A stretch of 64,000 nt of DNA from Candidatus Micrarchaeota archaeon (GCA_021801225.1 JAJYYF010000012.1:58656-122655), one strand, 5' to 3'. Numbered from the stretch's first letter, positions 7,709 to 49,506 are shown. Notes: generated by a model not told the origin, from the sequence alone. Numbers and translations are program-made.

Positions 7709-8071
7709 ATGGCAACACAGAATCAAGCAGGAATTGAAGATATAGAAAAATTATTGAAGGATTACCAACTTCTTCAAGAGCAAATGAGAAGCATAGTTAT
7801 GCAAATAGAACAAATGCAATCTCAAAAAATTGAGTTAGAACGTGCAAAAGAAGAACTTGAAAAATCTTCAGGAAAGGTCTTTTTAACAGTAGGTAATGTA
7901 ATAATAGAGAGTTCAAAGGATAAAGCTAAAACAGATATAGAAGATAAGCATTCAATGGTAGAAATACGTTTACAATCTATGAATAAACAATATACAGAGA
8001 TGAAAAGTAAAGATAGGCAGCTTAATGAAAAACTAACTCAAATATACAAAAATGGTCAGGGACAGCAGTGA
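7709..8071 (+). CDS. pfdB: prefoldin beta subunit
   Basis: 120 aa with two coiled-coil arms flanking a short beta-hairpin region (KVFLTVGNVIIESSKD), which is the typical prefoldin-beta architecture. Confidence 0.7.
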   Translation: MATQNQAGIEDIEKLLKDYQLLQEQMRSIVMQIEQMQSQKIELERAKEELEKSSGKVFLTVGNVIIESSKDKAKTDIEDKHSMVEIRLQSMNKQYTEMKSKDRQLNEKLTQIYKNGQGQQ

Positions 8072-14915: not shown

Positions 14916-15027
14916 TGGACTCTGCGGGATTCGCACCCGCGACCTTTCCGTTTTCCGATTTTGATAAAACTTTTTTTAAAAAAAGTTTTTATGCGAACGG
15001 AACGCTCTGCTCCTGAGCTAAGAGCCC
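14916..15027 (-). tRNA. tRNA-Ala (anticodon CGC) with a 40-nt intron after position 37
   Basis: Acceptor GGGCTCT/AGAGTCC carries the Ala identity pair G3:U70 and discriminator A. D arm is GCTC...GAGC. Anticodon stem TTCCG/CGGAA encloses TTCGCA + 40 nt + A. T arm is GCGGG-TGCGAAT-CCCGC. The intron maps to 14952..14991. Confidence 0.75.
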
Positions 15028-32451: not shown

Positions 32452-33009
32452 TTACTTTCTTAAGATATCCTTACTTATATTTGTATATACTTTATTAGTT
32501 GTATAATCCTTGATATATACATATAAATCTGTCCAACCACTCATTCTTGCAACTGCTCTTGCGTCTAAATTTTCTTTATTCTTCAATGCTCTATCCGCAC
32601 CATTTTTTAATAAAATTGTAATATCCCTTCTTCTTCCGTATCTTGCAGCATACATCAAAGCTGACCAACCCTCTTTATCTAAAAAGTTTATACCTTTTTT
32701 ACCTATCTTGTTTGAACAAATTTCAGTTGTACACTCTGTATTTCCATTCTTAGCAGAGTACATTAATGGAGATACGCCATTTTTGTCACATACTAAAGGA
32801 TCAGCCTTCAAAGCCAAAGATAATTTAATAAGATTTAAATCTCCTCTTTCAGAGGCATAACTCAATATCGTTCTACCTTCTTTATCTACTTCGTTGATAA
32901 GTATTTGTTTAATATTATCTCTAATTAGTTGTTTAACAATATCGAACTCTCCTTTTCTTGCAAAATAAACAACTCCACTACTCAATATTTTTTCCACAGT
33001 CCTCCACAT
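32452..33009 (-). CDS. ankyrin-repeat protein
   Basis: 185 aa with about 4 ANK repeats (GRTILSYASERGDLNLIKLSL..ADP; GVSPLMYSAKNGNTEC; GWSALMYAARYGRRRDITILLKNGAD). It lies 16 nt upstream of mvk on the same strand. Confidence 0.8.
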   Translation of the reverse strand: MWRTVEKILSSGVVYFARKGEFDIVKQLIRDNIKQILINEVDKEGRTILSYASERGDLNLIKLSLALKADPLVCDKNGVSPLMYSAKNGNTECTTEICSNKIGKKGINFLDKEGWSALMYAARYGRRRDITILLKNGADRALKNKENLDARAVARMSGWTDLYVYIKDYTTNKVYTNISKDILRK

Positions 33010-34747: not shown

Positions 34748-37700
34748 ATGGAGAATAAAGGAATTTTGAAGAATAAAGGAATATTTTTAGTAATGGCTCT
34801 TATGAGCATAATGTTCATTGGCTTTGTAAGCGCTAATTCAGTTTTATTTAGTTCTAACAGTCCAATCTCTAACTCATTTGAAGTTGGTCAAACCGTAAGC
34901 GGTATGATATCAATCTCCGGAAGCGCAATAACCGGAATTAATTCTTTTGCACCTCCAAATCTAACATTTACATCAAATTCTCCTGATGTAAATACTGCAA
35001 TAGAAACTTGTAACGCAAAAGGTTATTCAACATCTCCAACCTTCGTATCAAACACAGTTACTTTTTATTGTCCAGTAACATTTACAACTTCTGGAAGTTA
35101 TAATGCAGTGGTTTCTTATAAATTCAATGATTCTACTACAACATCTAATACAGTATCAAACACTATCGATTTTTATGTAAATCCTGCACCTTCCATATCA
35201 TTTAACTTATATCCATCACCATATCCAAACTCAACAAGTAACATATTCGATGAAGGTCAAACAGTAACTGCACAAATCTCATATCTTGGAACACCTGAAG
35301 AATTGAGTATATCAAATCTTATGTTTAAATCTGCTTCATCTGATTTATTCTCTTTAAATTCAAATGGTTGTTCAGTTATTCATACTATAATAATATGTCC
35401 TATAACTTTTAATTCAGTAAACTTCGCAACGCCATCTACCATAACTGCTTACTACACAGATGAATACGGTGTTTCTACATCTAACACAATATCATTGACC
35501 GTTGATCCACTATCAATATCTGCAACACCTACAAATCAGAATTTAGATGTAGGTCAAAATTCATTAATAGCATTGAATATTAATGAAGCAAGTGGTTCAG
35601 ATAACAGGTATGTAATAAGCAATTCATTATCTTATAATGGAGCTAATATAATCTCTAACTCTATATTAACAAACTCGTCTCCAACAAACTACATATTTAC
35701 TCCAAATCAACCTGGAACATACAACGCAATTTTTACTATTACTGATACAACTACTCATTACTCTGTATCTACTTCATCAAACTGGACAGTATACTCTAAA
35801 CCCGTTGTAAACATAGCAGTAAGCAATGCATTAAACTCTGATAATTCTTACTCAACAGACGCGGGACAGTTTCTTACATTCCATATTTCATCAACAGGTG
35901 GCACTGGCGCTCCGATAAAAGTATACTTAAATTGCGATCCAACAAGCATAGGTACATTCTTAGATTGTTATGGTTCTAATTTTTATTTTGATTCTACTTC
36001 ACATGGTCCTTACGCACTTGTGTTATTAAACAGTGTAAATGGATTTTCTAACACAATTTCATTACAAACTATCAACTCTCCTGCTAGCGATGTAAATATT
36101 ACTGGCACATTTAAAGATACAGGAACCTCATCTTCTGGAACTCCAAAAGAATTTGGTCTTAATCAGATAAACTTCAATACAGTTCAAACATTATTCGGAA
36201 CACCTACTCCAACAACTTCAAATACTGTACTAGATCAAGGTCAGTTTACTTATATCTCAACAATAGGCGCTGGTCAAGGTGGTGTACTTCCATATATATG
36301 GACTTGGTTTAATTCGTATAACAACAGTGCATATTCAAAAACTTCAACTACAATATGTCCAACAAACTCTGGAAAATCAACAACTACAAATACAAATATT
36401 CTAACTGCAACTTGTGGATTCCAAACCTCAACATCAACTTCACCTGGCAGTTACAACTTCAAAGTTAATACTACTGACGCAGCTAACTTCTCACTTTTCT
36501 CAGATCCAGTTTTGGTTACAGTTAACAAAGCACTTTCTATTTCCGCATCTGCATCTAACACTCAAATAGATGTGGGACAAAGTTCATTATTAACAAATAT
36601 AACTGAAGGAGGAACAGGGCCTTACTCCTATCAATGGTCAGAAGAAACCCCAGGCACAAATACATTTACTAATATAACTGGTGCTACATCAGCTACTTAT
36701 AACTTTGTAACTACTCCTACAACATCAATAGGCACATATAATTTTGAGCTTTTTGTAAAGGATAGCGCAACAACTCCAGTAACAAAAACATCAACACCAG
36801 TATCAATTATAGTGAATCCAGATCCTACTGTATCAATAACACCAAAAACAAATACAATAATGGATGTTGGTCAATCAGTTACATTCACAGCAACTGCAAC
36901 TTCTGGAACACCACCATACTCATATCAATGGTACTCAATAAGCGGCGGTTCAAACACAATTATACCGGGATCTACTTCATCTACCTACAAATATACTCCA
37001 GATCAAAGTACAGCAATAAGTCTGGGTGTTAAAATAACAGATAATGCAAACTTTATTACATACAGTACAAACATAGCTAATATAACTGTATACTCTATGC
37101 CAACTATCAGCGTACAATCTCCATCAAACACATTTATGGACGTAGGCCAATCTACAACATTGGTATCATCTGTTTCAAAAGGTACAGGTAAGTTTTCATA
37201 TTTGTGGACAGTGTCTCCACCAGGTAGTTTAATTCCATCCTGTTCTGGACTCGTATCTAGCGATTCAAATACTATAATATATACTCCATCAAGCGATACA
37301 TCTTGTACTGCACAAGTAGCTGTAACAGATATAGGTACATCTAGCTACGCAACACCAGTAATTACAGTAACTGGAATATTTACTCCAATAACAGTATATC
37401 CAACACCAACACTTTCAGAATTAACTCCAAGCAACGCAATAATAGATCTAGGTCAGTCTGAAACCTTCAATGTAATAATAAACGGAGGAAGCAACAAAGA
37501 CATGTCATTAGCATTATATCAATCACCAGAGAACAATGTTATAGGAAACGGAGTTACTGGTGCTGGAGATGGTGTTCAAACATTTCCAAATTTTGTACCA
37601 TCATTATCAGAAAATACATTCTATGTTAATGGTCTTGACGCAGGAGTAACTACACCATTCGATATTCCACCTACAAATTTAATACACATACAAATAAATC

Positions 37701-40700
37701 CTAAATTAAGTTCTACAATTTCAGCAAGTAATGACTCTATAGCTCCTAATCAAGAATCAACATTAACAAGTAGCATAACTGGTGGAACACAACCATACTC
37801 ATATCAATGGTATATGGAAACACCTGGAACAACAAACTTTGTTCCTATCAACGGCGGAACTTCAAATACTTTTAATTTCAACTTAAACTCAATGACCTCT
37901 TCTGGAAATTATGAGTTTATTTTATCAACTACAGATAGTGCATCAACACCAGAAACAGTCAACTCAATAAGCACTTCGATTACAGTAACTCAAGCCTTTA
38001 CATCACCAAAATTAGTTCTAGACATAAACGCTAGTATTAAAAATGATCCTGACAGCGGTAATATAGGTTACTGGGCTTTGGATAATATTACAAGAAACAT
38101 ACAAGTTTGGCAAACAACATTGAGAACTCCAACAACATACAACTCTTACACATCAAACATAATTGACAATGGCATAGCAACTACATTTGCGGGCGCAGTT
38201 AGTCCAGGAAGTTTAACTCCATACGAAACAAAAGAACCATATAATGGAGTAGCTACATTAAAAGGATTTGATCAAATAACATTTACTGGAACGTTTACTC
38301 CAGGTTCTTATCCTGTTTATACAAATGGCCAACAAGTAGCATCATTTAACAACGAAGGAACTGCTTCATATATACTTTTAGGCAACTATTCTAATCAAGG
38401 TAAATCTGCGTACACTCCAGCTTCAACATTTAATCATTATCTAAACGAGTACTTTACATTAGAACCATCAACAGGTTATAACTTCCAAATATGGGGTGAT
38501 ACATATACTTACTCAGTATATCCTCCAGGCAATCAAGTAATGACAGACAATAGCATATCAAACCCTGCAGTAACTGGCGATATAATAACATATCAAGTAC
38601 CTACAGTAACTATGTCATTAGCTAACGCAGAAATTATTGATTATGGTCAAACTGAGTCATACTCTGCCAGCATATATAATGGAATAGGAAACTTCCCTAA
38701 TACAATTTTATATCAATACGGTTCAAATACAATACCAACAACAATAGACTGTTCAAGATCCTTACTCGGAGTAGGTTGTTCTGGAGCAGGTACATTCATA
38801 CCTATAAATTCAGTTAACATAGGTGCCAATGGCTTAGGAAATATAAATGGAAATACAGTTTCATTTGGATCTTTTACGCCATCAATCGGAACAGATACAT
38901 ACTTTGTATCTGCTTTTGACGGTGGAACATCCCCTCCTAACACATACTCATTCATATCAAACACAAATACAATATATGTCTATCCAGATCCAACAGTTAC
39001 AACTAATATAAACAAACCAACATCTTTGGACTTAGGAAGCAGTATAACAGTATCTGCAGTAACATCTGGAGGAACTGGTAAGTTCTCTTACTCATGGAGT
39101 ACTACTGGAACATGTCCTGGATTTACTTCATCTACAAGTAACTCATTTACATACACACCAACTGGAGTAACAAATAACTGTGTAATTAATGTATTAGTCA
39201 CTGATATTGGAGTATCTCCTAATGCCTCACCATCTGAGTATTCAGTAGCAACAGCATCAACACAAACAATAACAGTCAATCCAGCATTATCCTCACCTCC
39301 AGTTTTAGTTAGTGGTAAAAGTTTTGATCAAGGAGAAACAGTAGAAATAACAACCGGTTCGGTACAAGGCGGAACACCACCTTATACTTACAACTTCCAA
39401 GTAGAGAATAAGAACCTATCAAAATTATTTTTCACATGTACACAAATAGCATCTGGAGTATGTACATTTACAGCAACTCAAACGGGAATTTATAATGGTA
39501 CTTTATCCATAACAGACAGCGCAACAATACCATCTACTGTATACAACTCAATTCCATCTTATGCAGTAAATCCTGATTTCGGATTAGAAGGAGCTTCAAC
39601 TTCCACAAATACTTTAATTGATTCTCAAATAACTCCAGTGCTAATCACTGCAAATATAATAGGAGAAGGTGGAACACCACCTTATACTTATGACTTTACA
39701 GTTCAAAATGCAACAACAGGTAAAACAGTTTTCACCGAACAAACTCAAAACTCAATGCTAGGAAATAGTATAGTGTTTAATCCACCAAATAATGGTATTT
39801 ACCAAGCAACAGCAATTATATATGATAATGCAACTCCTCAAGAATATATACAGTCCTCATACTCAAAAGCGTTCTTAGTAGGTTCTGCTGGCGCACCAAC
39901 AGCTGTAATAACACCTTCTAAGTATGTAGTTGATAGTGGTTACACCGACAATCTAACTGCACAAGTCTTTGGAGGCGTAGGTCCATTTAATGTTGAGTTC
40001 TATAACATATCTGGCCAAAAGCAAATAGGTTCTAATGTAACTATACAATCACCTGGAGGATCTAACTCAATAAGTTTCACTACAAACACTTCGTATTCAT
40101 TAGGTCTAAGTTTTAAGATAATAGTTACAGATGAACACACAGGTGTAACATTCAACTCACTTCCAAAAGAAGTAATAATAAACCCTGCATTAGGTTCAAA
40201 CCTTACATTATCAAACTCAACAATTGATATTGGACAACCGACTGTATTATCAGCAACAATACATGGAGGAACACCACCATACTCATTCACATATGAGATA
40301 AATGGCACAACTGCAGGAGAAAACAGCAATGTAATGGCAACCGATTCATCAAATGTATTAATCCCAACAATAAACACATTTGTATTATCTGGAAATATTA
40401 TAACAAAACCTGGTACATACCCTATAAATGTTCTCGTTCAAGATATTGCAGGTGGTTCAGAAGTATTATCAAATACATTAGTAGTGAATCCTGCAATGGA
40501 ACCTACGATATTAAGTATAACTCCAAACTCATTAACTACTGCACAATCAGTATCACTTTCAAGTACGAGCGAAACATACGGAACGTCACCTTATCTGTAT
40601 AACTTTGAAATAATAAATACAACTACAAACACAATACTCGTTTCTTCAGGTTATCAAACATCAAATACCTTTACTTCTTCAGCATCAAAACTAAAAGGAG

Positions 40701-41536
40701 GAAACAACGCAGTTGTTATAGTTAAGGATTCAGCAGGAACAACATCAACTTCAAATGTAATAAACTTTAATGTAAGTCAAGCAACTACTACAACAACCAC
40801 AACACCACAAAACACCGGAGGATCTCCAGGAGGAGGTGGTGGCGGTGGAGGAGCTTCAGGCGGAGGAGGCGCAGGAGGTGGAACACCACATCCAACAGTG
40901 CTTAACTTCACTAATGCAACAGATACAGGTTATGGGGTAACAAACTTTGCAGTTCCTGCTACAACTTCAGTCACTAAATTCAATGCAACATTTAACTTGC
41001 TTATGAACTTCATCTCACCAACGCAGGTAGGAGTATCAATAAATGGAAATCCATACACACTGCAGCTTAAAAACCAATCTGTATCAATAGGTACGATAGA
41101 TGGCAATGCATATTATGTAGAGTTATCTGCAATATCATACTTGCCATTGCAGAACACAGCAACAATTTACCTATACACCTCTACACCAAAGAGCCCTAAC
41201 ACAAACACAAAGTCTTCAAACAACACAGTTAATCCAAATACGCCATCGAACGTAACAACAAAATCAAATGTAACAAACAACACAAAATCTGTCAACACAA
41301 CAGTTAATACAACATCAATAAAAACTACAACAAAACAAAATACAACATCAAACACATCTAATCAATCTGCACAAACAAATAATACAAATACAACACAAGG
41401 TACTGCACCAACAAACATCAATGACAACTCTGGTTTGTACACCGCATTAGGAGCAATAATAGTAATCATAATAATTCTAGGTATACTTTACTACTTCTTT
41501 AGTAGTAAAAAGGTACCAATAAAGAATAAAAAATGA
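34748..41536 (+). CDS. giant cell-surface protein (~2,262 aa): signal peptide, about 20 Ig/PKD-like beta-sandwich repeats, one unique ~200-aa insert, Gly linker, PHPTV module, N/T stalk, C-terminal TM anchor
   Basis: Single ORF with signal GIFLVMALMSIMFIGFVSANS. Repeat hallmarks recur: (I/M/L)D(V/L/Y)GQ(S/N)... then GG(T)(P/Q)PY(S/T)Y(Q/N/D)(W/F). The C-terminus is SGLYTALGAIIVIIIILGILYYFFSSKKVPIKNKK. Confidence 0.9.
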   Translation: MENKGILKNKGIFLVMALMSIMFIGFVSANSVLFSSNSPISNSFEVGQTVSGMISISGSAITGINSFAPPNLTFTSNSPDVNTAIETCNAKGYSTSPTFVSNTVTFYCPVTFTTSGSYNAVVSYKFNDSTTTSNTVSNTIDFYVNPAPSISFNLYPSPYPNSTSNIFDEGQTVTAQISYLGTPEELSISNLMFKSASSDLFSLNSNGCSVIHTIIICPITFNSVNFATPSTITAYYTDEYGVSTSNTISLTVDPLSISATPTNQNLDVGQNSLIALNINEASGSDNRYVISNSLSYNGANIISNSILTNSSPTNYIFTPNQPGTYNAIFTITDTTTHYSVSTSSNWTVYSKPVVNIAVSNALNSDNSYSTDAGQFLTFHISSTGGTGAPIKVYLNCDPTSIGTFLDCYGSNFYFDSTSHGPYALVLLNSVNGFSNTISLQTINSPASDVNITGTFKDTGTSSSGTPKEFGLNQINFNTVQTLFGTPTPTTSNTVLDQGQFTYISTIGAGQGGVLPYIWTWFNSYNNSAYSKTSTTICPTNSGKSTTTNTNILTATCGFQTSTSTSPGSYNFKVNTTDAANFSLFSDPVLVTVNKALSISASASNTQIDVGQSSLLTNITEGGTGPYSYQWSEETPGTNTFTNITGATSATYNFVTTPTTSIGTYNFELFVKDSATTPVTKTSTPVSIIVNPDPTVSITPKTNTIMDVGQSVTFTATATSGTPPYSYQWYSISGGSNTIIPGSTSSTYKYTPDQSTAISLGVKITDNANFITYSTNIANITVYSMPTISVQSPSNTFMDVGQSTTLVSSVSKGTGKFSYLWTVSPPGSLIPSCSGLVSSDSNTIIYTPSSDTSCTAQVAVTDIGTSSYATPVITVTGIFTPITVYPTPTLSELTPSNAIIDLGQSETFNVIINGGSNKDMSLALYQSPENNVIGNGVTGAGDGVQTFPNFVPSLSENTFYVNGLDAGVTTPFDIPPTNLIHIQINPKLSSTISASNDSIAPNQESTLTSSITGGTQPYSYQWYMETPGTTNFVPINGGTSNTFNFNLNSMTSSGNYEFILSTTDSASTPETVNSISTSITVTQAFTSPKLVLDINASIKNDPDSGNIGYWALDNITRNIQVWQTTLRTPTTYNSYTSNIIDNGIATTFAGAVSPGSLTPYETKEPYNGVATLKGFDQITFTGTFTPGSYPVYTNGQQVASFNNEGTASYILLGNYSNQGKSAYTPASTFNHYLNEYFTLEPSTGYNFQIWGDTYTYSVYPPGNQVMTDNSISNPAVTGDIITYQVPTVTMSLANAEIIDYGQTESYSASIYNGIGNFPNTILYQYGSNTIPTTIDCSRSLLGVGCSGAGTFIPINSVNIGANGLGNINGNTVSFGSFTPSIGTDTYFVSAFDGGTSPPNTYSFISNTNTIYVYPDPTVTTNINKPTSLDLGSSITVSAVTSGGTGKFSYSWSTTGTCPGFTSSTSNSFTYTPTGVTNNCVINVLVTDIGVSPNASPSEYSVATASTQTITVNPALSSPPVLVSGKSFDQGETVEITTGSVQGGTPPYTYNFQVENKNLSKLFFTCTQIASGVCTFTATQTGIYNGTLSITDSATIPSTVYNSIPSYAVNPDFGLEGASTSTNTLIDSQITPVLITANIIGEGGTPPYTYDFTVQNATTGKTVFTEQTQNSMLGNSIVFNPPNNGIYQATAIIYDNATPQEYIQSSYSKAFLVGSAGAPTAVITPSKYVVDSGYTDNLTAQVFGGVGPFNVEFYNISGQKQIGSNVTIQSPGGSNSISFTTNTSYSLGLSFKIIVTDEHTGVTFNSLPKEVIINPALGSNLTLSNSTIDIGQPTVLSATIHGGTPPYSFTYEINGTTAGENSNVMATDSSNVLIPTINTFVLSGNIITKPGTYPINVLVQDIAGGSEVLSNTLVVNPAMEPTILSITPNSLTTAQSVSLSSTSETYGTSPYLYNFEIINTTTNTILVSSGYQTSNTFTSSASKLKGGNNAVVIVKDSAGTTSTSNVINFNVSQATTTTTTTPQNTGGSPGGGGGGGGASGGGGAGGGTPHPTVLNFTNATDTGYGVTNFAVPATTSVTKFNATFNLLMNFISPTQVGVSINGNPYTLQLKNQSVSIGTIDGNAYYVELSAISYLPLQNTATIYLYTSTPKSPNTNTKSSNNTVNPNTPSNVTTKSNVTNNTKSVNTTVNTTSIKTTTKQNTTSNTSNQSAQTNNTNTTQGTAPTNINDNSGLYTALGAIIVIIIILGILYYFFSSKKVPIKNKK

Positions 41537-41603
41537 TTAATATTTAATAGTTTATTTTCTTTTATTTTTAATTTTTAAAATTTTACTATTTAATTTTTTT
41601 CCA

Positions 41604-41620
41604 AGCAAAACCTTATATAT
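41604..41620 (+). promoter_or_regulatory. candidate BRE/TATA promoter (AGCAAAA-CC-TTATATAT) for the 41681 gene
   Basis: A purine-rich element followed by a TATA-like octamer lies about 60 nt upstream of ATG 41681. A similar CAAGCAAA element precedes the 44271 gene. Confidence 0.3.
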
Positions 41621-41680
41621 CTGATTAATTAAAGATAATTGTGGATATTGGGTTTACTCAATAATATTTTAGGTTGTAAG

Positions 41681-44134
41681 ATGAAATCGAATATATTTTT
41701 TATGTCTGTTTTGACGAGCATTTTTGTAATGTTTGTCTTTTTGTTTAATGTTGGTTATGTAGGAGCTGCTTCTGTAGTTTCTCCTAACGTAGTGCCATCA
41801 AATGTTTTATACTATGTTCCAATAACTGTAACAGCTAATGGTCCAGTAGTCGCTAACGCACAAGTAATGTTTACCTTCCTAAAAAATAACTATTTAAGTT
41901 ATGAAAGTCACAACCTACAAAATATAGAATTCTTTTACTCAAATGGAACTATAATTCCATCTTGGCTTGAAGGAGAATCTCTTAGTCCTTCATTAAGCTC
42001 TTTATCCGTATCCTACTGGTTAAAAATAGTAAATCCAAACTTCTTACCTTCAACAGGATCTACAAATACTGTTTATATGGGATTTGGTTCAACATCAACA
42101 AACTTCTTTAATGGTAATACAGTTGGTGAATCACCTATACTATCATCATCTTATGGAGAGTATGATAACGGAGCAAACGTTTTCAGTTATTATCAATCAT
42201 TCGGAGGTTTATCTGGAAACTCTTTGCCTACCGGATGGACAAGTGTTAATAATAAAACAGGTGGCCAGACAAGCGGTTTAGCTTTAAATACAACTGTCGT
42301 AAATAATCCTTCAAATACAGTAATTTATGTTTCTGGAAATGAAAATGGTTGCGGTTGTGGTATCTTTGAAAACGCGTTACCATCAATGAGTCCTGGAAAC
42401 ACAATAGAATGGTATGGTAATATATTCAATAATCAGCCAGCAGGTACCTTTGCAGGTTTAGAATCAATTCCATCTGGACTTCCTGTTCCTTTATATACTT
42501 GGAACTACGAAACCGGCGATGGAACAACAAAACAAAATATAGCTGCGTTTAGTTTAGGTGAGTACTTAACAACTCCAAATCAACCTGGAAACTTATCAAC
42601 AGGTCCTTATCTAGACGGTGGTCAACTTACTTCATTTACAGATTCAAATACAAATAAAATATACGGAATACAGATAAACTCAGCAACATCTTTCAATGCG
42701 CTTGTTAATTACATTAGTTATGGTCAAGATACCTCTGAAAGTTTAGGATCTCCTTCATTGTTCGTGTTTTCAGTTGGACTTAACCCAGCAGGCGTAGTTC
42801 ATTCATCACCTCAAAGTATATACTGGTTAAGAACAAGAACAAATACTAAAATGCCTACACTTTCATTCGGTTCTGTATATCCATCTCCAATGGAAGCAAA
42901 TATAGTAGAATCACCAACATTAGTATACGATGGATCTACAATTTCACTAAATGCAACTGTATCAGGGGGAGTATCTCCTTATACATACAACTTTATAATA
43001 TACAATGCAACCTCTGGTAATGTATTAATTAATACGCCTACGGGACAAAATAACAATACACTTGCTAATCCAATAAAGATATCTAATACTGGAAATTATT
43101 TAGCACAAGTCGAAGTAACAGACTCAAGTTATCCAGCAAATCAAGTTGTGTACTCTGCAAATGTTCCATTCAATGCAATTCCATTTAATGGAATAGTTAT
43201 AACAACAAATACGCCTATCATAGATTTTGGTCAAACAGTATATCTTACTGTAAACGACATAAATCCATTGAATAATGGTAAAAACAACAACTTCGATTTA
43301 TTCATAAACGGAAATAACATTAATTCCGGTGCTTCATACTCAAACTTTCCAATATCAAATACAGTAGTTCCAACAACAACCGGCAACATAGTATACACTG
43401 CTCATGGAATTATGGTATCACCTTTTGAGTATCCTACATTCTCGAATAGTGTTGTAGTTACTGTAAATCCAGCATTAAGTATTTCAGCAGCAAACTCTGG
43501 ATCATCAATAACTACTGGTTCTAGTGAGACATTAACAGCTACAGTTTCTGGAGGAACACAACCATACTCATATCAATGGTACTCAATAAGCGGTAGTTCA
43601 AACACAATTATATCTGGAGCAACTTCAAGTACATATACTCCAAGCACATCAACAACCGGAAGCTTCAGTTTTGGAGTAAATGTAATAGATGCAGCAAATG
43701 CAGTAGCATATAGTAATCCTATATCCTTTACAGTAACATCTCCTCCTACAACTACCGTCAGCAGTGGAGGATTTATTCCAACTGGAGGTCCAGCACCAAC
43801 AACATCATTAACAACAATTCCTCCTGCAGTACCACCATCAACAACACCTCCGACAACAACTACAAAAACTATTGTAAATACACAGCCTTCTAATACACTA
43901 AATACAAACACAACGAACAAAACAAAAACATCAACAAACGCATTAAACACAACAAACAAAACAAAGAACGTAACTCCTGTAGTCACAACTACCGTGGCAA
44001 AGGTAGTAAACAATACGGGTTTCCCATGGTGGATTATTTTATTAATAATCATAATCATAGTCCTGTTATTGTTGTACTGGTACATGAGAAAGAAAAAACA
44101 CGCAAAGCATCATTCTGCAAAGCATAACTCCTAA
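41681..44134 (+). CDS. cell-surface protein (~817 aa): signal peptide, DUF2341-like module, YGEYDNG lectin/LamG-like module, Ig/PKD-like repeats, P/T stalk, C-terminal TM anchor
   Basis: I prefer the start MKSNIFFMSVLTSIFVMFVFLF (ATG 41681) over GTG 41639. Motifs are YYVPITVTANG...VSYWLKIVNP, SSYGEYDNGANVFSYYQSFGG, IYWLRTRTNTKMPTLSFG and GGTQPYSYQWYSISG. The C-terminus is TGFPWWIILLIIIIIVLLLLYWYMRKKKH. Confidence 0.85.
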   Translation: MKSNIFFMSVLTSIFVMFVFLFNVGYVGAASVVSPNVVPSNVLYYVPITVTANGPVVANAQVMFTFLKNNYLSYESHNLQNIEFFYSNGTIIPSWLEGESLSPSLSSLSVSYWLKIVNPNFLPSTGSTNTVYMGFGSTSTNFFNGNTVGESPILSSSYGEYDNGANVFSYYQSFGGLSGNSLPTGWTSVNNKTGGQTSGLALNTTVVNNPSNTVIYVSGNENGCGCGIFENALPSMSPGNTIEWYGNIFNNQPAGTFAGLESIPSGLPVPLYTWNYETGDGTTKQNIAAFSLGEYLTTPNQPGNLSTGPYLDGGQLTSFTDSNTNKIYGIQINSATSFNALVNYISYGQDTSESLGSPSLFVFSVGLNPAGVVHSSPQSIYWLRTRTNTKMPTLSFGSVYPSPMEANIVESPTLVYDGSTISLNATVSGGVSPYTYNFIIYNATSGNVLINTPTGQNNNTLANPIKISNTGNYLAQVEVTDSSYPANQVVYSANVPFNAIPFNGIVITTNTPIIDFGQTVYLTVNDINPLNNGKNNNFDLFINGNNINSGASYSNFPISNTVVPTTTGNIVYTAHGIMVSPFEYPTFSNSVVVTVNPALSISAANSGSSITTGSSETLTATVSGGTQPYSYQWYSISGSSNTIISGATSSTYTPSTSTTGSFSFGVNVIDAANAVAYSNPISFTVTSPPTTTVSSGGFIPTGGPAPTTSLTTIPPAVPPSTTPPTTTTKTIVNTQPSNTLNTNTTNKTKTSTNALNTTNKTKNVTPVVTTTVAKVVNNTGFPWWIILLIIIIIVLLLLYWYMRKKKHAKHHSAKHNS

Positions 44135-44143
44135 TTAATTGGA

Positions 44144-44195
44144 TTTTATTTTTTTTATTTAGTATTTTTCTTATTTTTTCTTATTTTTTACTTTT
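44144..44195 (+). terminator. cluster of oligo-T tracts after the 41681..44134 gene
   Basis: The sequence is GATTTTATTTTTTTTATTTAGTATTTTTCTTATTTTTTCTTATTTTTTAC, with four runs of T5-T8. Confidence 0.4.
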
Positions 44196-44233
44196 AATCT
44201 ATATATAAAATTTATTAGAATAATTTTTATTCA

Positions 44234-44250
44234 AGCAAATTAATAAAATA
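44234..44250 (+). promoter_or_regulatory. candidate BRE/TATA (AGCAAAT-TAATAAAATA) about 25-30 nt upstream of ATG 44271, implying a leaderless or near-leaderless transcript
   Basis: Called from spacing to the start codon and similarity of the CAAGCAAA element to the one at 41602..41610. Confidence 0.3.
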
Positions 44251-44270
44251 CTTTATATTAAATTTACCTT

Positions 44271-46439
44271 ATGCATAAAAATAAAATTAAGAAAAAGGAG
44301 GTCCATGGCCAATCAGCAATGGAGTACTTGATGACATATGGTTGGTCAATTCTTATAGTTGCTATTGCTCTTGTTGCACTATTTGAGCTAGGCTACTTCA
44401 ACGCAAATAACTTTTCACCAAGTGCTTGTTTATCACAAGTAGGATTTTTATGCACTAATCCAATTTTAAACTCTACTGGTAATCTTACTCTTACTGTTGG
44501 AAATAACGGCGGCCAAGATCTTGTCATAACGGGTTTGGGCTGTTCAAATTCTTCAACAGTACCAACAACATACTCTCCTGTTTTACTTACATTAGGACAA
44601 GCTCAATCAAAACAAATTACTTTTGAGTGCCAATTAAATTCACAAAGTATTGGTTCTTCATTCAAAGGATCACTTTGGCTTCAATTAAATAATGGTCAAC
44701 AAGAAATGTTAGGCACAGTATCTGCTACTGCATCAACAGGTACGCCTGTCGGTCAACCTGGTAGCAATGGCAACGGTATTTTTTATTTAGTCAATACTGA
44801 AGGTGGGAATTCTGATTTCGGAAATATAATAAAAATAAATATAAATAACGGAACTATACTTAGTGCTATAGATTCGCAGAAATCACCATTTGATGATGAT
44901 CCAGTCGGTATAGCTTTATCTGGTTCATATGCATATGTTTCAAATAAATATGGTGAAAATATTCCTGTAATAAATATAAATACAAATCAAGTAATTAATA
45001 ATATCACATCGTCTTCTTTTGGTAATTTATATGGTATTGCAATGTCTGGCAATTATATTTACGTTTTAAACAGGTACGGAAATCAAGGAGCTGGAAACAT
45101 TTTAATAATAAATAAAGCAACTAATCAAATAGTAAATAGTATTTCATCATCATCTTTTCATTATCCTTTTAGTATTGCTACATCGAATCAATACTCTTAC
45201 GTGGTAAATAGATTAGCTGACAATGTAATTATTTTAAATAATGAAACAAATACTATAATTGGTAGTATTACTTCACCTTTTTTCGATTCACCTACTGGAA
45301 TTGCTGTATCTGGTAATTATGCATATCTACTAAACTCAAATGGAGGTTCAGAATCTACTGGAAATCTACTAATAATCAATACTGCAACAAATACAGTTGT
45401 AAACAGCATCTCTTCTCCTGATTTTTATTATCCAGATGGCATTTCAATATCTGGTCAATATGCGTATGTATCAAATTTTCAATCAGGACCTTCAGGATCT
45501 TCGGCAACAACTAGTAATATTATAATAATAAATATACCAACAAACACAGTTGTTGGTAGTATATCTTCAAATTCTTTAACAGTCGGTTCTACTGGAATCG
45601 CTATCTCTGGTAATACAGGATATATCGCAAATATTAATGGAGGTTCTTATAATACTGGAAATATTTTAATATTTAATACTCAAAGTAATAGTATTTTTGG
45701 AAATATAGGGCCATTAGATCAATTAAACAGTCCTACTAGCATAACTATCGAAGGATCAACTGCTTATTTGTCAGGATCTTTTGCAGATAATAACAACATC
45801 TATGTCATAAACCTCCTTAATAACAATATTAAAACAATTGAATCTTCATTTTTAGACGATACGATGTCAATTGCATCGGATAATGGAAATCTCTATGTAA
45901 CAAATTATAAAGGAGGAACTTATGGGGATGGTAATGTTATCATATTAAATTCTAGTACTTATACTCCAGTAAATTCTATTGACTCTCAGTTATTTTTTAA
46001 TCCGACTGGGGTAGCAATATCTGGCCAATACATGTATGTGTTAAATCAATATGGTAACGGAGGTACAAATGGTAACTTATTAATAATAAATACAAAAACA
46101 AATCAAATAATAAAAAGTATTGATTCACAATTATTTCAAAATCCAATAAGTATTACTATTAATTCTAATTATGCTTATATCGTAAATCAGTATGGTGGTA
46201 TTTCTAACTCCGGAAACATTATAATAATGAATATTTCTACAGATCAATTTACCAATAATGGCATATCAAGTCCATTCTTTTCTCCAAAGCAAATTGTAAT
46301 ATCTGGTACCTATGGTTACGTAACAACAACGTCAACAAATCCAGGTAATATTGTTATTATTAATACAACTACCGATCAAATAATAAATTCATTAACTGAA
46401 AATTATTTTGATTTTCCTTTTGGAATAACTTCATCTTAA
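44271..46439 (+). CDS. class III (archaeal prepilin-type) signal-peptide protein fused to an Ig-like domain and an ~11-12-blade YVTN-type beta-propeller (722 aa)
   Basis: The N-terminus is MHKNKIKKKEVHG|QSAMEYLMTYGWSILIVAIALVALFEL: a basic stretch, G|Q cleavage context, then a hydrophobic helix. About 11-12 repeats of roughly 45 aa follow, with the core G(I/V)A(I/V)SG.YAYV.N...G...II(I)N..TN.(I/V). Confidence 0.8.
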   Translation: MHKNKIKKKEVHGQSAMEYLMTYGWSILIVAIALVALFELGYFNANNFSPSACLSQVGFLCTNPILNSTGNLTLTVGNNGGQDLVITGLGCSNSSTVPTTYSPVLLTLGQAQSKQITFECQLNSQSIGSSFKGSLWLQLNNGQQEMLGTVSATASTGTPVGQPGSNGNGIFYLVNTEGGNSDFGNIIKININNGTILSAIDSQKSPFDDDPVGIALSGSYAYVSNKYGENIPVININTNQVINNITSSSFGNLYGIAMSGNYIYVLNRYGNQGAGNILIINKATNQIVNSISSSSFHYPFSIATSNQYSYVVNRLADNVIILNNETNTIIGSITSPFFDSPTGIAVSGNYAYLLNSNGGSESTGNLLIINTATNTVVNSISSPDFYYPDGISISGQYAYVSNFQSGPSGSSATTSNIIIINIPTNTVVGSISSNSLTVGSTGIAISGNTGYIANINGGSYNTGNILIFNTQSNSIFGNIGPLDQLNSPTSITIEGSTAYLSGSFADNNNIYVINLLNNNIKTIESSFLDDTMSIASDNGNLYVTNYKGGTYGDGNVIILNSSTYTPVNSIDSQLFFNPTGVAISGQYMYVLNQYGNGGTNGNLLIINTKTNQIIKSIDSQLFQNPISITINSNYAYIVNQYGGISNSGNIIIMNISTDQFTNNGISSPFFSPKQIVISGTYGYVTTTSTNPGNIVIINTTTDQIINSLTENYFDFPFGITSS

Positions 46440-46491
46440 TTGTTTAGTATTTTTCCAATAGTTTATTATTTTTATATTCCAAAGTAATATT

Positions 46492-47718
46492 ATGTGGTTT
46501 TTTAAGAAAAATTCTCCGACACCACCAGAGGAGGAATATACATTAAGTAATTTAACACCATTACTTATATCTTTATTAGATACATCACTTAATGAGTTTT
46601 ACTCAAGCTGTAGTGGTTTTGTTACTTTATTTAACAACTCAAAAAAAGAGTTTATTGAAGAGTGCAAAGTTCTTGAAAAGTACAATGGAGAACCAAATGT
46701 AGAGGACATGTGGGCTCCTAATATAAACTCAATTAAAACACAAAAAAATTCATATACAAAAACATTAATCCGAATACTTGAAAAAGAGTACGAAAGCACA
46801 TTTGATACACAATATGGGAAATACAAGGCTGAGCTTTCAATAATGGATGATACAATAGGGGAGATGCTTCGTATCAACAGTATGTTCAAGGTTGTTGTCC
46901 TTTCTTACTCTAACGAGTTAAATAAGTTCAAAAAAATATTTGCAAATATGGAAAAATCAAGAGATAAATTGAGATTATCTATTGACACAATACAACCTGA
47001 ATATAAAAAATACGAAGAGATAAGAAATAAAATAGAAAACCTTTATGGTATGATTGAAGAAGATAAATTAATGGATAGTAACATATCCTCAATAAATTCA
47101 GAGTTAAGTGTATTATTGACAAAAGATGAGTTGTCAACAAAGGAAAAATTAAAAAATATCCTTAATGAAAAAAATGAAGAGTTATCATCAGCAAAGGAAA
47201 AAATACACAACATGAAGGTAAAAATTTCTAGTTCTCTTATGCAATTAGAAAGAGCCGCAAGAAAGATGGACTACTCATATAAGGGTAAAAGAAGCCTTGT
47301 ATCATTTATTGAAAATCCTGAAGAAAACTTTAATGATGAATCAGACTATAAGGACTTCGAAAAGTTACTGGATGATATGGTTTCTTTGCTAAATATGGAT
47401 AAAATACAGATAAAAGGAAAAGAGGCAATTTTTCCAAGTATACAAAAATTAAAAACATCTGAATTTAGAGATCAAATTAAACAGCTTTCTGAGTTGAATG
47501 AACAAAAGAAATTTTTATTTGACGAAATAAACAACTTAGAAAATGAAGTTTTATCTAAAGAATCAAAGTCTAAAATCATTCAGGAAAAAGAAAAGGAAAA
47601 ACAACAGATGTTTTTGAGAAAAGAGCAGTTAAAACAACTTACAACCTCAACTAAATCAGAATTAATTGAGTTATTTCTAAAATACTATAATAGAAAAATA
47701 AAAGTTATCGGAGAATAG
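46492..47718 (+). CDS. coiled-coil protein, no signal peptide (408 aa), hypothetical
   Basis: Rich in K/E/L/N with long heptad-like stretches (KLRLSIDTIQPEYKKYEEIRNKIENLYGMIEE...; LSELNEQKKFLFDEINNLENEV...). Same strand, 52 nt after the pilin-like gene. Confidence 0.5.
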   Translation: MWFFKKNSPTPPEEEYTLSNLTPLLISLLDTSLNEFYSSCSGFVTLFNNSKKEFIEECKVLEKYNGEPNVEDMWAPNINSIKTQKNSYTKTLIRILEKEYESTFDTQYGKYKAELSIMDDTIGEMLRINSMFKVVVLSYSNELNKFKKIFANMEKSRDKLRLSIDTIQPEYKKYEEIRNKIENLYGMIEEDKLMDSNISSINSELSVLLTKDELSTKEKLKNILNEKNEELSSAKEKIHNMKVKISSSLMQLERAARKMDYSYKGKRSLVSFIENPEENFNDESDYKDFEKLLDDMVSLLNMDKIQIKGKEAIFPSIQKLKTSEFRDQIKQLSELNEQKKFLFDEINNLENEVLSKESKSKIIQEKEKEKQQMFLRKEQLKQLTTSTKSELIELFLKYYNRKIKVIGE

Positions 47719-47754: not shown

Positions 47755-49506
47755 ATGAATAAACTAAGAGATATGGAGTACTTTGAGAAGTGGCTTATTC
47801 TCGGGATATTAATAGGTATAGCTGCAGGTATAGGCGCTACTATTTTCTACTTTGCAATAAAGTTTTCAGAGTCATTTTTCTTAGGAAATATCTTAGGAAT
47901 GTCTATTCCATTACCTGCTGGCGAAGCTGTAGTTCAAACAAATTATACATTTTCAGTAGCTAATTACCTCTTAATACCAATAGTACTAATTATTGGAGGT
48001 GCAATCTCAGGTTTTTTAGTTTATAAATTTGCCCCAGAAGCAGAAGGTCACGGAACCGATGCTGCAATCAATGCATTTCATAATAAAGATGGAAAGATTA
48101 GACCAAGAGTTCCTTTAATAAAAACAATAGCTTCTGCTATAACAATAGGTTCAGGTGGCAGTGCAGGAAGAGAGGGTCCTACTGCACAGATAGCTGCAGG
48201 TATCGGTTCATATTTAGTAGATTTTTTCAGATTAAGCGATGAGGATAGAAGAACAGCCGTAGTTGTTGGTATAGGTTCTGGAATAGGAACAATCTTCAAG
48301 GCACCGATAGGTGGTGCTATTTTTGCAATTGAGGTTCCATATAAAAGAGACTTTGAAACTAGGGCAATATTTCCGGCGATAGTAGCAAGTGCAGTCGGTT
48401 ACTCAATCTTTGGTTCTATAGTTGGCTTTACACCAATTTTTGGTTATCTTACCACTACATTTGATCCGTTGAGATTGCCATTTTACGCAATATTGGGCCT
48501 AATTGCTGGTTTACTAGCTATATTCTATATCTGGTTCTTCTATAAAGTCCATGATGGTTTCAAAAAATTAAAGATAAGCAACTACTACAAGCCAATCCTA
48601 GGTGCAGCTGTAGCTGGGGTCATTGCCTTACTATTTCCAGAGATTATGTCAGTAGGTTACGGCTGGGTACAGCTTCTAATAAATAATAACGCACTAGCTA
48701 TACCTACATTCGGTTTGCCCATACTCCTTATTCTAGTAATGTTACCAATAGCTAAGATAATAGCTACATCATTCACTATAGGTTCAGGAGGGAGCGGAGG
48801 CGTCTATGCTCCAGGAATCTTTGTAGGCGCCTCACTAGGTTTTGTTTATGCAATACTTCTACACTCATTACTTCCAGTACTGTTCCCTAGCGTAGCTCCT
48901 TTAGTAATAGTCGGAATGCTTGCCTTTTTCGGTGCTGCTGGAAAGGTCCCAATCTCAGTTCTTCTTATGGTCATAGAGATGACTGGAAGCTTACAGCTAC
49001 TTCCTGCGGCTATGATTGCAGTTGCATTTTCATATCTCGCTTCTGGAAGCAAAACTATCTATAAATCTCAGGTTATGTCTAGGGAGTTCTCTCCAGCTCA
49101 CTTAAGTGAATATAAAAAACCAATAATGCTATCGATGGATGTCAGTAGTATTCCATTAAGAGATGTCTCTATTAATAGGAAAACATCTCAAAAGAAGGTA
49201 CTGGCATTAATGCGTTCTTTAAATGTTAGTTCATTGCCAATAGTTGAAAAAGGTATTTATTTAGGAAGTATAACGGCCTCAGAGCTAGCTAAAAATGGAA
49301 TGCCCAACTCTAATTTATGGGTTGATGGAAGTAGGAAATCGTTAGACCCTAGCGATAGTATAGCAAAAGCCTTGAACTTCATGGCAAAAACTAACTCATT
49401 AACATTACCTGTAGAAAAAGATGGTAGATATTTAGGGAATATTTTCTTAAATGATATAATGAAGGCTTATGATTTACGAGCAAAGGTATTTACAAAAGAC
49501 ATTTAG
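47755..49506 (+). CDS. ClC-family chloride channel/transporter with C-terminal CBS pair
   Basis: 583 aa with GSGGSAGREGP, GIGTIFKAPIGGAIFAIEV and GSGGSGGVYAPGIFVG. The C-terminal ~130 aa are CBS-like. Confidence 0.85.
   Translation: MNKLRDMEYFEKWLILGILIGIAAGIGATIFYFAIKFSESFFLGNILGMSIPLPAGEAVVQTNYTFSVANYLLIPIVLIIGGAISGFLVYKFAPEAEGHGTDAAINAFHNKDGKIRPRVPLIKTIASAITIGSGGSAGREGPTAQIAAGIGSYLVDFFRLSDEDRRTAVVVGIGSGIGTIFKAPIGGAIFAIEVPYKRDFETRAIFPAIVASAVGYSIFGSIVGFTPIFGYLTTTFDPLRLPFYAILGLIAGLLAIFYIWFFYKVHDGFKKLKISNYYKPILGAAVAGVIALLFPEIMSVGYGWVQLLINNNALAIPTFGLPILLILVMLPIAKIIATSFTIGSGGSGGVYAPGIFVGASLGFVYAILLHSLLPVLFPSVAPLVIVGMLAFFGAAGKVPISVLLMVIEMTGSLQLLPAAMIAVAFSYLASGSKTIYKSQVMSREFSPAHLSEYKKPIMLSMDVSSIPLRDVSINRKTSQKKVLALMRSLNVSSLPIVEKGIYLGSITASELAKNGMPNSNLWVDGSRKSLDPSDSIAKALNFMAKTNSLTLPVEKDGRYLGNIFLNDIMKAYDLRAKVFTKDI

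Follow-up and report, generated by a model that had tools for sequence, protein, structure and literature searches.

Four consecutive genes on one strand of a Micrarchaeota (DPANN) genome, at 34,748–47,718 of the stretch analysed here (the window, a 64-kb part of a MAG; GC content about 30%), raise the question of whether they encode one dedicated attachment apparatus, as the original prediction had it, or separate surface proteins beside an unrelated neighbour. The ORFs are present with the lengths given there, all on the + strand, at 34,748–41,536 (p1; 2,262 aa, counted from an ATG preceded by GGAGGT), 41,681–44,134 (p2; 817 aa), 44,271–46,439 (p3; 722 aa) and 46,492–47,718 (p4; 408 aa), the organism is archaeal, as had been surmised, and none of the four proteins shows an enzymatic signature at the level of curated cut-offs. 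Relatives carry the names Micrarchaeaceae, Micrarchaeia or Micrarchaeota, and those in cultivation live attached to host archaea. TCA and mevalonate genes are present in the window, as in the cultivated ARM-1 (PMC8784108). The reading that we favour, with moderate confidence, is that p1–p3 form a rapidly changing cluster of genes for adhesin-like surface proteins, next to the unrelated p4 and a conserved housekeeping block; their products, plausibly involved in host contact, would belong to known kinds of protein (fibrillar adhesin-like proteins and modular pilins) instead of making up, with p4, a new apparatus.

The p1-p2-p3-p4 order is kept in near-identical strains only. At 44–72% identity, one relative has only p2-p4 at the locus and another p1-p2-debris-p4, and p3 stands alone elsewhere, four relatives having its orthologue (44–48% identity) surrounded by housekeeping genes, so that the expected conservation of four-gene synteny is not seen. 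Proteins of the flanks are 82–87% identical where p2 is 55% and p1 54–57% identical, the p1 orthologue being in loci L012 and L014, while p2 orthologues were identified in L011 and L013 (55%) and, as a split ORF, in L012 and L014 (50–70%). A decayed transposase between the p2 and p4 orthologues of L014 was considered and rejected, as the stitched pseudo-protein has no Pfam match; this segment is called frameshifted gene debris only. To the right, the variable surface-gene cluster is bounded by a conserved block (ClC-MazG-TMEM175-...-enolase), starting with a gene for a ClC chloride channel with CBS domains (47,755–49,506, + strand). Horizontal transfer was rejected as the source of a GC bump (0.35, compared to about 0.30), which is probably due to Thr/Ser/Pro/Gly-rich amino-acid composition, since p3, with a GC content of 0.30, has no bump.

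As predicted, p4 is a helical, coiled-coil-like protein without a signal peptide. Its family, found throughout Micrarchaeota, consists of cytoplasmic proteins with coiled coils (about 188 representatives, ~400 aa), distant members of which adjoin SecDF, beta-oxidation, helicase or glycosyltransferase genes. A genome scan with a narrow p4 alignment found nine loci, Pfam searches with ten distant family members gave generic coiled-coil noise only, and a PDB sequence search with the family profile returned nothing meaningful. Because the ClC block always comes after p4 in close relatives, p4 groups with the conserved flank, and it is probably outside the surface system. These data bear directly on the idea that all four genes are co-expressed as one dedicated contact apparatus, with p4 as a cytoplasmic scaffold or anchor under the membrane. 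Co-directional genes separated by 37–145 nt, conservation of the order p1-p2-p4 in GCA_049964835.1, of p2-p4 in GCA_038730205.1 and of p3-p4 in one close strain, and a p2-p4 adjacency that recurs in three genomes of the clade all favour such an apparatus, while the separate location of p3 in four relatives, the distance between the p3 and p4 locus tags in the two genomes with named orthologues of both (QXD23_00720 vs 01550; ACP5M9_02260 vs 03290), the unrelated neighbours of a phylum-wide p4 family and the constant p4-ClC association argue against it. Oligo-T runs after every stop and TATA-like boxes before every start (p1–p4), weak evidence at 70% AT, also count against it, and the four genes are probably separate transcription units, not one machine. 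A joint apparatus is thus unlikely and, with a variable locus and p4 set apart, the 'dedicated attachment apparatus' of four genes is not upheld; the prediction of p1–p3 as surface proteins of adhesin-like architecture is.

The p1 protein consists of a Sec signal (residues 1–30), a divergent Ig-like N-region, Ig repeats with a GGTxPYxYxW motif (253–350, 484–1082 and 1415–2011), a Gly-rich linker, a membrane-proximal domain of ~90 aa (2048–2165), a sequon-rich S/T/N stalk, a TM helix and a Lys-rich tail. Ig repeats are present as claimed, their number being lower than the 'about 20' proposed: a search with a profile built from the repeats themselves detects 13 in p1 and two in p2, where repeats of the p1 type had also been predicted (E 1e-18 to 1e-30), and spacing suggests about 18 in p1. 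A curated SprB repeat profile gives 31 bits on p1 (cut-off 28) and a PDB sequence search with p1 returned nothing meaningful. The predicted unique insert of ~200 aa was located at 1083–1290 and matches no repeat profile. Strain-level variation in repeat number was not found, the 1,839-aa member of the p1 cluster being a contig-end truncation. The supposedly extreme density of N-x-S/T sequons did not survive comparison with composition-matched shuffles, as whole-protein counts are below those of the shuffles (45 vs 60.7±6.1, 13 vs 22.4 and 10 vs 20.7); globular parts have 1.1–1.5 sequons per 100 aa, compared to 1.02 in 30 other window ORFs, and only the membrane-proximal stalks are dense (13.1 and 6.6 per 100 aa).

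Module sharing with a 1,484-aa type I membrane surface protein (p5; 9,390–13,844, − strand) was confirmed for both p1 and p2. Residues 1027–1137 of p5 match the p1 membrane-proximal domain (37% identity, E 9e-13), while 679–744 and 885–951 match the p2 head. p5 has a TIGR03790-family domain in its N-terminal part, carries DUF2341-like pieces as in the p2 head and has a long acidic cytoplasmic tail, the length of which (120 aa) identifies it as a plain type I membrane protein.

In p2, a Sec signal is followed by a head (about 30–405) composed of a DUF2341-type beta-sandwich and a probable ConA-like jelly-roll, Ig repeats of the p1 type (402–501 and 597–687), an S/T/N/P stalk, a conserved GFPWW motif, a TM helix and a basic tail. 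The 'DUF2341-like' label comes from homologues: PF10102 is carried by 29 of the 67 p2 homologues listed (E down to 2e-47), several of them named DUF2341 domain-containing, while p2 itself (24–405) has no match at E≤1 and p5 a marginal one (E 0.12). 'Lectin-like' is hinted at by fold class, without profile support. The AF2 model of the head (pLDDT 71, pTM 0.76; half of the lectin-like domain at low confidence) matches galectin, GH16, LamG and PL7 jelly rolls with probability up to 0.97 but weakly, at E values of at least 5e-3. No LamG match exceeds the cut-off on the window proteins themselves (Pfam, NCBIfam), a K319L-like PKD match on p2 (22.4 bits) is below its cut-off of 27, and a PDB sequence search with the p2-head profile gave nothing meaningful. 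STEVOR/RIFIN matches on p2 were dismissed as spurious, being caused by low-complexity sequence and by the TM helix with its basic tail.

The C-terminal design described for p1 and p2 (S/T/N/P stalk, one TM helix, short basic tail, no PGF) is present in both, and the GFPWW of the TGFPWW noted in p2 is kept in its orthologues. PGF-CTERM does not match the last 75 aa of either protein at E≤10. The p2 tail scores 17.8 bits with LPXTG_anchor TIGR01167 (cut-off 15.9), though it has no LPXTG motif, and 15.6 bits with Loki-CTERM (below the cut-off of 19.9), short models of this kind scoring mostly the TM helix and basic tail. The likeness to sortase and archaeosortase signals (PGF-CTERM, Loki-CTERM, LPXTG) lies in a tripartite layout of short motif, TM helix and basic tail, but p1 and p2 have neither PGF nor LPXTG, and the window contains no sortase or archaeosortase gene.

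Several archaeal S-layer glycoproteins end in a Thr/Ser/Asn-rich, sequon-rich stalk and a C-terminal TM helix, a design resembled by that of p1 and p2, so that one or both could instead be structural envelope proteins (S-layer or S-layer-anchoring stalk) and not adhesins. The membrane-proximal domain common to p1 and p5, and the combination of YVTN and PKD modules in a Methanosarcina surface layer protein (1L0Q), are in keeping with this. However, the Micrarchaeota S-layer protein with experimental support is about 101 kDa, with PF05123/TIGR01567-type domains (bioRxiv 10.1101/2021.04.28.441871), no matches to which were found in p1–p3 or p5, and p1 is far above the usual size of S-layer proteins. 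One relative lacks p1 at the syntenic locus and another has p2 as a split ORF, so that neither is likely to be an essential lattice protein. We give a structural role little credence and continue to favour adhesin-like functions for p1 and p2.

p3 starts with KKKEVHG/QSAMEYL (slash, cleavage site) and matches the class III signal pattern (MHKNKIKKKEVHG before the cleavage site, QSAMEYLMTYGWSILIVAIALVALF after it), with a basic leader ending in G, Q at +1, E at +5 and a hydrophobic stretch. A hydrophobic helix (17–39), an eight-strand beta-sandwich with conserved Cys (52–155) and a short linker precede a YVTN-type propeller (171–722) of 12 blades with a Y-x-Y-V-x-N signature spaced at 42–52 aa. 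Across 43 homologues the pilin module keeps Q14, S15, A16, E18, Y19, L20, T22, Y23, G24, W25 and two Cys without exception. Neither PF04021 (Class_III_signal) nor any other Pfam model matches p3 1–175 at E≤1, and NCBIfam pilin models are also without a match, the sole hit being choice_anch_D (E 0.004, below cut-off). AF2 predicts the helix and all eight strands of the N-domain (pLDDT 74), and its best Foldseek PDB matches are all archaeal type IV pili (6nav, E 4.8e-4; 8fk7; 8q30; 8fj5), with low TM-scores (0.30–0.43) that are due to a different helix orientation. The propeller matches PDB 1L0Q (p3 219–521; phmmer E 4e-14), and p3 homologues are named YVTN family propeller. From signal motif, homologues and predicted fold, p3 is a putative modular type IV pilin, in agreement with the proposed prepilin-type signal and large beta-propeller. 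Direct Pfam and NCBIfam annotation of p1–p4 and of their separate modules yielded weak matches or none. Of the domains anticipated across the locus (PKD, DUF2341, LamG, Class_III_signal, YVTN), a profile search recovered the SprB repeat on p1, and YVTN was recovered by phmmer via 1L0Q, while DUF2341, LamG and Class_III_signal had no match above cut-off on the window proteins themselves; structure prediction linked the p3 N-domain to archaeal pilins and gave weak matches for the p2 head. The statement that none of the components looks like a characterised archaeal pilus, hamus or S-layer system does not hold for p3, given the archaeal type IV pilin fold and the Methanosarcina propeller, nor for the p2 head, as DUF2341 proteins are known parts of type IV pilus loci in archaea (PMC4858521, PMC10133366). 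No profile or PDB match hinted at the hamus of the SM1 euryarchaeon. The machinery itself is absent from the window, as had been stated: searches of the window ORFs of ≥120 aa gave no T2SS-E ATPase, FlaJ/TadC or A24 peptidase, and the 64 kb contain no PibD/FlaK/EppA-type peptidase and no FlaI/FlaJ-type ATPase or platform gene.

Another role envisaged for p3 is nutrient capture, with a ligand-binding or enzymatic (lactonase/PQQ-type) propeller anchored via the class III signal, as in the Sulfolobus bindosome, in place of adhesion. Class III signals do occur on Sulfolobales solute-binding proteins (PMC4858521), p3 itself weakly matches YncE and the PQQ-associated propeller model TIGR03866 (E 6e-10, well short of the cut-off), and faint matches to Lactonase, NHL and PQQ_2 are seen in homologues. 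This role appears improbable, as p3 stays below every family cut-off, its best match of solved structure is the propeller of a surface-layer protein, and the heads otherwise borne by the same pilin module (DUF2341, Kelch, LamG, Ig) are of types usual in adhesins; display of an adhesive propeller is the preferred interpretation.

The pilin module, DUF2341 head and Ig repeat recombine in other Micrarchaeota proteins. Among the 43 pilin-module proteins eight carry DUF2341, and Kelch, LamG_3, PKD and other propellers also occur; in some the pilin module is joined to a DUF2341 head without any intervening module, and one homologue (P0049) combines all three modules. The module family is spread over Micrarchaeota, Parvarchaeota and Marsarchaeota. 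As shown by these homologues, the predicted domains of p1–p3 come from a common Micrarchaeota set of modules (pilin anchor, DUF2341/lectin head, Ig repeat, propellers), recombined between two anchoring modes. A more speculative extension, for which we see perhaps a modest chance, is a combinatorial toolkit for host recognition, in which DUF2341/ConA-like, YVTN or Kelch, and Ig heads would be interchangeable on a Sec/stalk/TM or a pilin anchor, and recombination would be concentrated to the left of p4-ClC, with gain, loss, frameshifting or replacement of such genes (p3 here, debris in a relative). The lineage consists of episymbionts known to switch hosts and, if such a toolkit exists, the locus would act as a determinant of host range.

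For the favoured cluster of adhesin-like proteins, the sequences of p1 and p2 indicate Sec export and retention in the membrane by the C-terminal TM helix. The probably glycosylated S/T/N stalk and the Ig rod would project the N-terminal end outward, and a p1 rod of about 18 Ig domains might extend for several tens of nm, beyond the S-layer. The DUF2341 and ConA-like head of p2 is most likely a glycan- or protein-binding tip, judging by its fold class and by what DUF2341 proteins do in the pilus loci of archaea. A class III signal peptidase, with its gene outside the window, would cut p3 between G and Q, after which the N-terminal helix of p3 could insert it as a minor or tip subunit in a type IV pilus or serve as a membrane anchor, in either case displaying the 12-blade propeller as a putative binding module. 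The likely function of p1–p3 is attachment to host cells or to a biofilm matrix. Cryo-ET of cultivated Micrarchaeota has revealed contacts, filaments and nanotubes but no symbiont adhesin (PMC8975820, PMC11329633), and thin filaments, possibly pili, were seen in ARM-1 (PMC11329633). The locus offers testable candidates (a 12-blade-propeller pilin, a DUF2341/lectin-headed stalk protein and a giant Ig-repeat fibre), and the coiled-coil gene p4 and the 'four-gene apparatus' are removed as a false lead.

Bacterial Ig-repeat stalk adhesins and the SPEARE proteins of Nanohaloarchaeum antarcticus are giant surface proteins of host-dependent ultrasmall prokaryotes. Like them, p1 evolves rapidly, stems from an obligate episymbiont lineage and has an Ig rod that is anchored at one end and carries distal modules outside the repeats, but it differs in having the internal 200-aa insert and the membrane-proximal domain, with no enzymatic or pore-forming domains detected; to our knowledge, p1 has no sequence relationship to any characterised fibrillar adhesin. 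The Methanosarcina mazei surface-layer protein (1L0Q) has a YVTN propeller like that of p3 and the PKD/Ig modules found in neighbouring p1 and p2, although it is a Sec-type protein with 7 blades, compared to 12 blades on a pilin anchor. Large DUF2341 proteins (arCOG03508) of Methanococcales Epd type IV pilus loci have been proposed to be tip adhesins comparable to PilY1 (PMC4858521; PMC10133366), and the DUF2341 gene of the epd locus is required for transformation of M. maripaludis (PMC10133366); the p2 head is homologous to PF10102 proteins, but p2 itself is not matched by the Pfam model, combines a Sec signal with a C-terminal TM anchor and is not in a pilus locus. Compared to the modular type IV pilins of Streptococcus sanguinis (PilB, vWA; PilC, Ig-like and ConA-like lectin; PMC9934059), the predicted pilin of p3 is archaeal, unrelated in sequence and a beta-sandwich instead of an alpha/beta-roll, its cargo is a 550-aa, 12-blade YVTN propeller and no pil locus surrounds it, but all combine a class III signal and N-terminal pilin moiety with bulky C-terminal modules, and relatives of p3 share the DUF2341/ConA-like and Ig cargo.

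The open reading frames of four consecutive genes on the forward strand are present in the window (GC ~30%) with the sizes first reported, and products of the same 2,262, 817, 722 and 408 aa appear in public gene calls (DAHWVA010000019.1, GCA_027355205.1). They encode the giant Ig-repeat protein p1 (34733/34748-41536; GGAGGT upstream of the ATG at 34748), p2 (41639/41681-44134), p3 (44271-46439) and the coiled-coil protein p4 (46492-47718). MAGs yielding homologues are named Candidatus Micrarchaeaceae, Micrarchaeia or Micrarchaeota, and the TCA-cycle and mevalonate-pathway genes encoded in the window are similar to those of ARM-1, a cultivated thermoacidophilic Micrarchaeon (GC 34%, complete TCA cycle, eukaryote-type MVA pathway; PMC8784108); this places the source among the DPANN archaea, in a lineage that, in culture, lives attached to other archaea. 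Adjoining the citrate synthase/isocitrate dehydrogenase/PrpD cluster, between ComA-like and 2-hydroxyacid dehydrogenase genes, is a 471-aa ORF (21010-22425, +) with no match in a Pfam search. A third tRNA gene (14916-15027, -; Rfam, 49 bits), absent from ARAGORN output, spans 112 nt and probably contains an intron. Two genes upstream of the surface cluster lies a gene for a 185-aa ankyrin-repeat protein (32452-33009, -; Ank_2, E 1.6e-22); archaea seldom encode ankyrin proteins, which are often tied to host interaction.

The order p1-p4 is not kept in relatives. In close relatives the p4 orthologue is always followed by a ClC-MazG-TMEM175-FMN reductase-enolase block, and the arrangement upstream of p4 differs: p3 (93% identity) precedes p4 (88%) in a close strain, IF-2B and p2 (55%) precede p4 (72%) in GCA_038730205.1, without p1 and p3, and p1 (54-57%), a split p2 and 1.5 kb of frameshifted gene debris precede p4 (56%) in GCA_049964835.1. 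Flank proteins are 82-87% identical, vs 55% for p2 and 54-57% for p1. Full-length p3 orthologues (44-48% identity) were identified on four other Micrarchaeaceae contigs, amid ribosomal, tRNA-synthetase, primase or radical-SAM genes, with no p1, p2 or p4 found near them, and p3 and p4 homologues have locus tags far apart in both genomes with named orthologues. Thus p1 and p2 form a semi-conserved pair, p3 came to this site recently, p4 is part of the conserved flank and the junction to its left is a site of gene turnover. In every gap between genes of the window, the stop codon is followed by oligo-T runs and the next start is preceded, at 15-40 nt, by a TATA-like box; in this AT-rich genome, these signals hint weakly at separate transcription units.

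The debris in GCA_049964835.1 (L014, the same locus as L012; 8524-10000) occupies the position of p3 in the window, is multiply frameshifted and has the look of a decayed gene, perhaps one for a transposase; its stitched translation gave no match in a Pfam search. The p2 orthologue there is divided between a 140-aa ORF (6080-6502) and a 673-aa ORF (6502-8523), which points to a pseudogene with a frameshift or to an error in the assembly. Elsewhere, near p3 orthologues that sit close to ribosomal genes, a signal-anchored, Asn/Thr-rich protein of 700-709 aa (L005/L006, 7803-9905, -; L009, 2307-4436, -), with no match in a Pfam search, is a probable surface protein.

p4 defines a Micrarchaeota-restricted family of ~400-aa coiled-coil proteins. 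It is helical in prediction and, as originally noted, lacks a signal peptide. A generic coiled coil was rejected, since long blocks are invariant across seven close homologues: MWFFKK at the N-terminus, NINSIKxQK and ERAARKMD (ERAARKxD for the family). Searching 1.84 billion representatives with a profile of the family yielded 188 proteins (counted at 50% clustering), and nearly all have ~400 aa and align over their full length; ten sampled members had no real Pfam match, and the family profile found no relative in the PDB. Six distant Micrarchaeota homologues are 25-28% identical, and the neighbours identified at four of these loci (L016, L019, L020 and L021) include SecD/SecF, beta-oxidation genes, a Hel308-type helicase, a glycosyltransferase, GatD or an ABC ATPase. 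In three distant MAGs (within L016-L021) the p4 homologue lies beside SecD/SecF in divergent orientation.

p1 starts with a Sec-type signal. A profile of its own repeats detected 13 Ig-type repeats of ~95 aa each (GGTxPYxYxW signature; E 1e-18 to 1e-30) at residues 253-350, 484-1082 and 1415-2011, and the other stretches are of a length that fits ~5 further divergent Ig domains; 20 or so repeats had first been counted. The sole Pfam match is SprB repeat (31 bits vs a cut-off of 28). The predicted unique insert of ~200 aa corresponds to residues 1083-1290, which had no match in profile, PDB sequence or own-repeat searches and are kept in an orthologue from another MAG. A ~90-aa domain after a Gly-rich linker is 37% identical (E 9e-13) to part of p5, a 1,484-aa surface protein encoded 21 kb away, and the C-terminal part of p1 consists of an S/T/N stalk, a single TM helix and a Lys-rich tail.

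In p2, a Sec signal and a 380-aa head are followed by two Ig repeats of p1 type (402-501 and 597-687; residues 590-695 are 50% identical to p1 686-791), a stalk, a conserved GFPWW, a TM helix and a basic tail. The head, predicted to be DUF2341-like and lectin-like, gave no Pfam match to DUF2341 even at E ≤ 1, but PF10102 was identified in 29 of 67 head homologues among the matches listed (E down to 2e-47), several of them named DUF2341 proteins. These homologues come from Micrarchaeota, Parvarchaeota, Marsarchaeota and Conexivisphaerales. In the AlphaFold model of the head (pLDDT 71, pTM 0.76) the first beta-sandwich is confident and the second beta-rich half less so, and Foldseek gave weak PDB matches (best E 5e-3), mostly to galectins, GH16 glucanases, LamG and PL7 lyases, which are ConA-like jelly rolls. 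Transitive homology therefore supports assignment of the head to DUF2341, and the modelled fold makes a lectin-like character plausible.

No PGF motif or PGF-CTERM match was found in the p1 and p2 C-termini, as expected from the original prediction. The p2 tail marginally exceeded the cut-off of the short LPXTG_anchor model (17.8 vs 15.9 bits) without an LPXTG motif and fell below that of Loki-CTERM (15.6 vs 19.9 bits); both models mainly score a TM helix followed by a basic tail. N-x-S/T sequons, described as extremely dense, are so in the membrane-proximal stalks alone (13.1 and 6.6 per 100); p1-p3 as a whole have fewer than composition-matched shuffles, and the globular parts carry 1.1-1.5 per 100 aa vs a window background of 1.02. 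A GT87-like multi-pass membrane glycosyltransferase (58405-59853, -; E 5e-9) could take part in making surface glycans, which would bear on the sequon-rich stalks.

The N-terminus of p3 is MHKNKIKKKEVHG/QSAMEYLMTYGWSILIVAIALVALF, and Q14, S15, A16, E18, Y19, L20, T22, Y23, G24, W25 and two cysteines are invariant among aligned homologues (n=43). AlphaFold modelled residues 1-175 as a long N-terminal helix (17-39) and an eight-strand beta-sandwich (pLDDT 74), for which the closest PDB folds are archaeal type IV pilins (Sulfolobus islandicus pilus 6nav, E 4.8e-4, 26% identity; also Pyrobaculum 8fk7, S. acidocaldarius Aap pilus 8q30 and Haloferax pilus 8fj5). p3 thus has the motif and fold of an archaeal type IV pilin, while the curated profile failed, the Pfam Class_III_signal model giving no match. 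The rest consists of 12 blades of 42-52 aa each (Y-x-Y-V-x-N signature) and matches the YVTN propeller of Methanosarcina mazei surface-layer protein 1L0Q (E 4e-14). From the pilin-like fold and the 12 blades, p3 is a pilin moiety bearing a very large propeller, in agreement with the prepilin-type signal and propeller first recognised. Also as first noted, no pilus ATPase, platform protein or prepilin peptidase was found within the 64-kb window.

Sharing of modules with p5 had been predicted and holds; the p3 homologue P0049 and the cargo of other p3 homologues extend it well beyond the window. About half of 120 p3 homologues among the matches listed match only its first 11-26%; they keep the AQSAMEYLMTYGW signal and the sandwich with its cysteines but differ in the cargo behind it. 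This cargo is DUF2341 in 8 of 43, Kelch propellers in three, and otherwise includes Lactonase/NHL/PQQ-type propellers, LamG_3, PKD, InlB B-repeats and Big_3_5. P0049 unites the p3 pilin module (47%), the p2 DUF2341 head (33%, twice) and the p1/p2 Ig repeat (42-46%), and p5 carries the membrane-proximal domain of p1 plus parts of the p2 head. Two more pilin-module genes, on long contigs, stand alone amid housekeeping genes.

p5 (9390-13844, -) has an N-terminal match to NCBIfam TIGR03790 (88 vs cut-off 67 bits), three near-identical S/T-rich linker repeats, enriched sequons (55 vs 38±5 expected) and, after the TM helix, a ~120-aa cytoplasmic tail rich in Asp, Glu and Lys. Its DUF2341-like pieces are reversed relative to p2, 679-744 (~ p2 115-189) preceding 885-951 (~ p2 35-98). 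A 546-aa CARDB/NPCBM-associated Ig-domain protein (61368-63008, -) adjoins an ABC-2 permease (63017-63994, -), and this pair, with an ABC ATPase and a PadR regulator, is seen again on another Micrarchaeota contig (L022, 16475-20540) and is therefore a conserved surface-protein/exporter module.

p1 and p2 would be type I membrane proteins, with stalk and Ig rod keeping the N-terminal end off the cell surface and p2 displaying a DUF2341/ConA-like binding head. A class III peptidase encoded outside the window would cut p3 between G and Q, after which p3 might become a minor or tip subunit of a type IV pilus or stay in the membrane, displaying its propeller. The ligands would likely be biofilm matrix, or glycans or proteins of the host envelope. 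The first observation is confirmed in part, and its interpretation is supported in part: it is plausible that the proteins act at the surface or in attachment, as originally proposed; the results do not support an apparatus of four genes unlike any known system. What is somewhat novel is that the same heads apparently swap between two anchor types (pilin and C-terminal TM) and that genes turn over at this locus, although it seems doubtful that this amounts to a real host-range toolkit. p1-p3 belong to a phylum in which no symbiont adhesin has been identified so far.

The Micrarchaeota S-layer protein bears PF05123-type domains (bioRxiv 10.1101/2021.04.28.441871); p1 and p2, in which profile searches found no such domain, are not this protein. 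The Epd pilus loci of Methanococcales include genes for DUF2341 proteins, which have been compared to the PilY1 tip adhesin (PMC4858521), and transformation that depends on pili requires a DUF2341 gene of that locus (PMC10133366). [quoted passage not shown] Archaeal type IV filament systems are often accompanied by large adhesin-like proteins rich in Ig domains (bioRxiv 10.64898/2026.04.22.720090), and ARM-1 cells have thin filaments, maybe pili, and an 11-16 nm S-layer-to-S-layer gap to the host (PMC11329633). By analogy, p1 and p2 may work like fibrillar adhesins and p3 like a modular pilin; p1-p3 are uncharacterised additions to known kinds of system, not a new kind.
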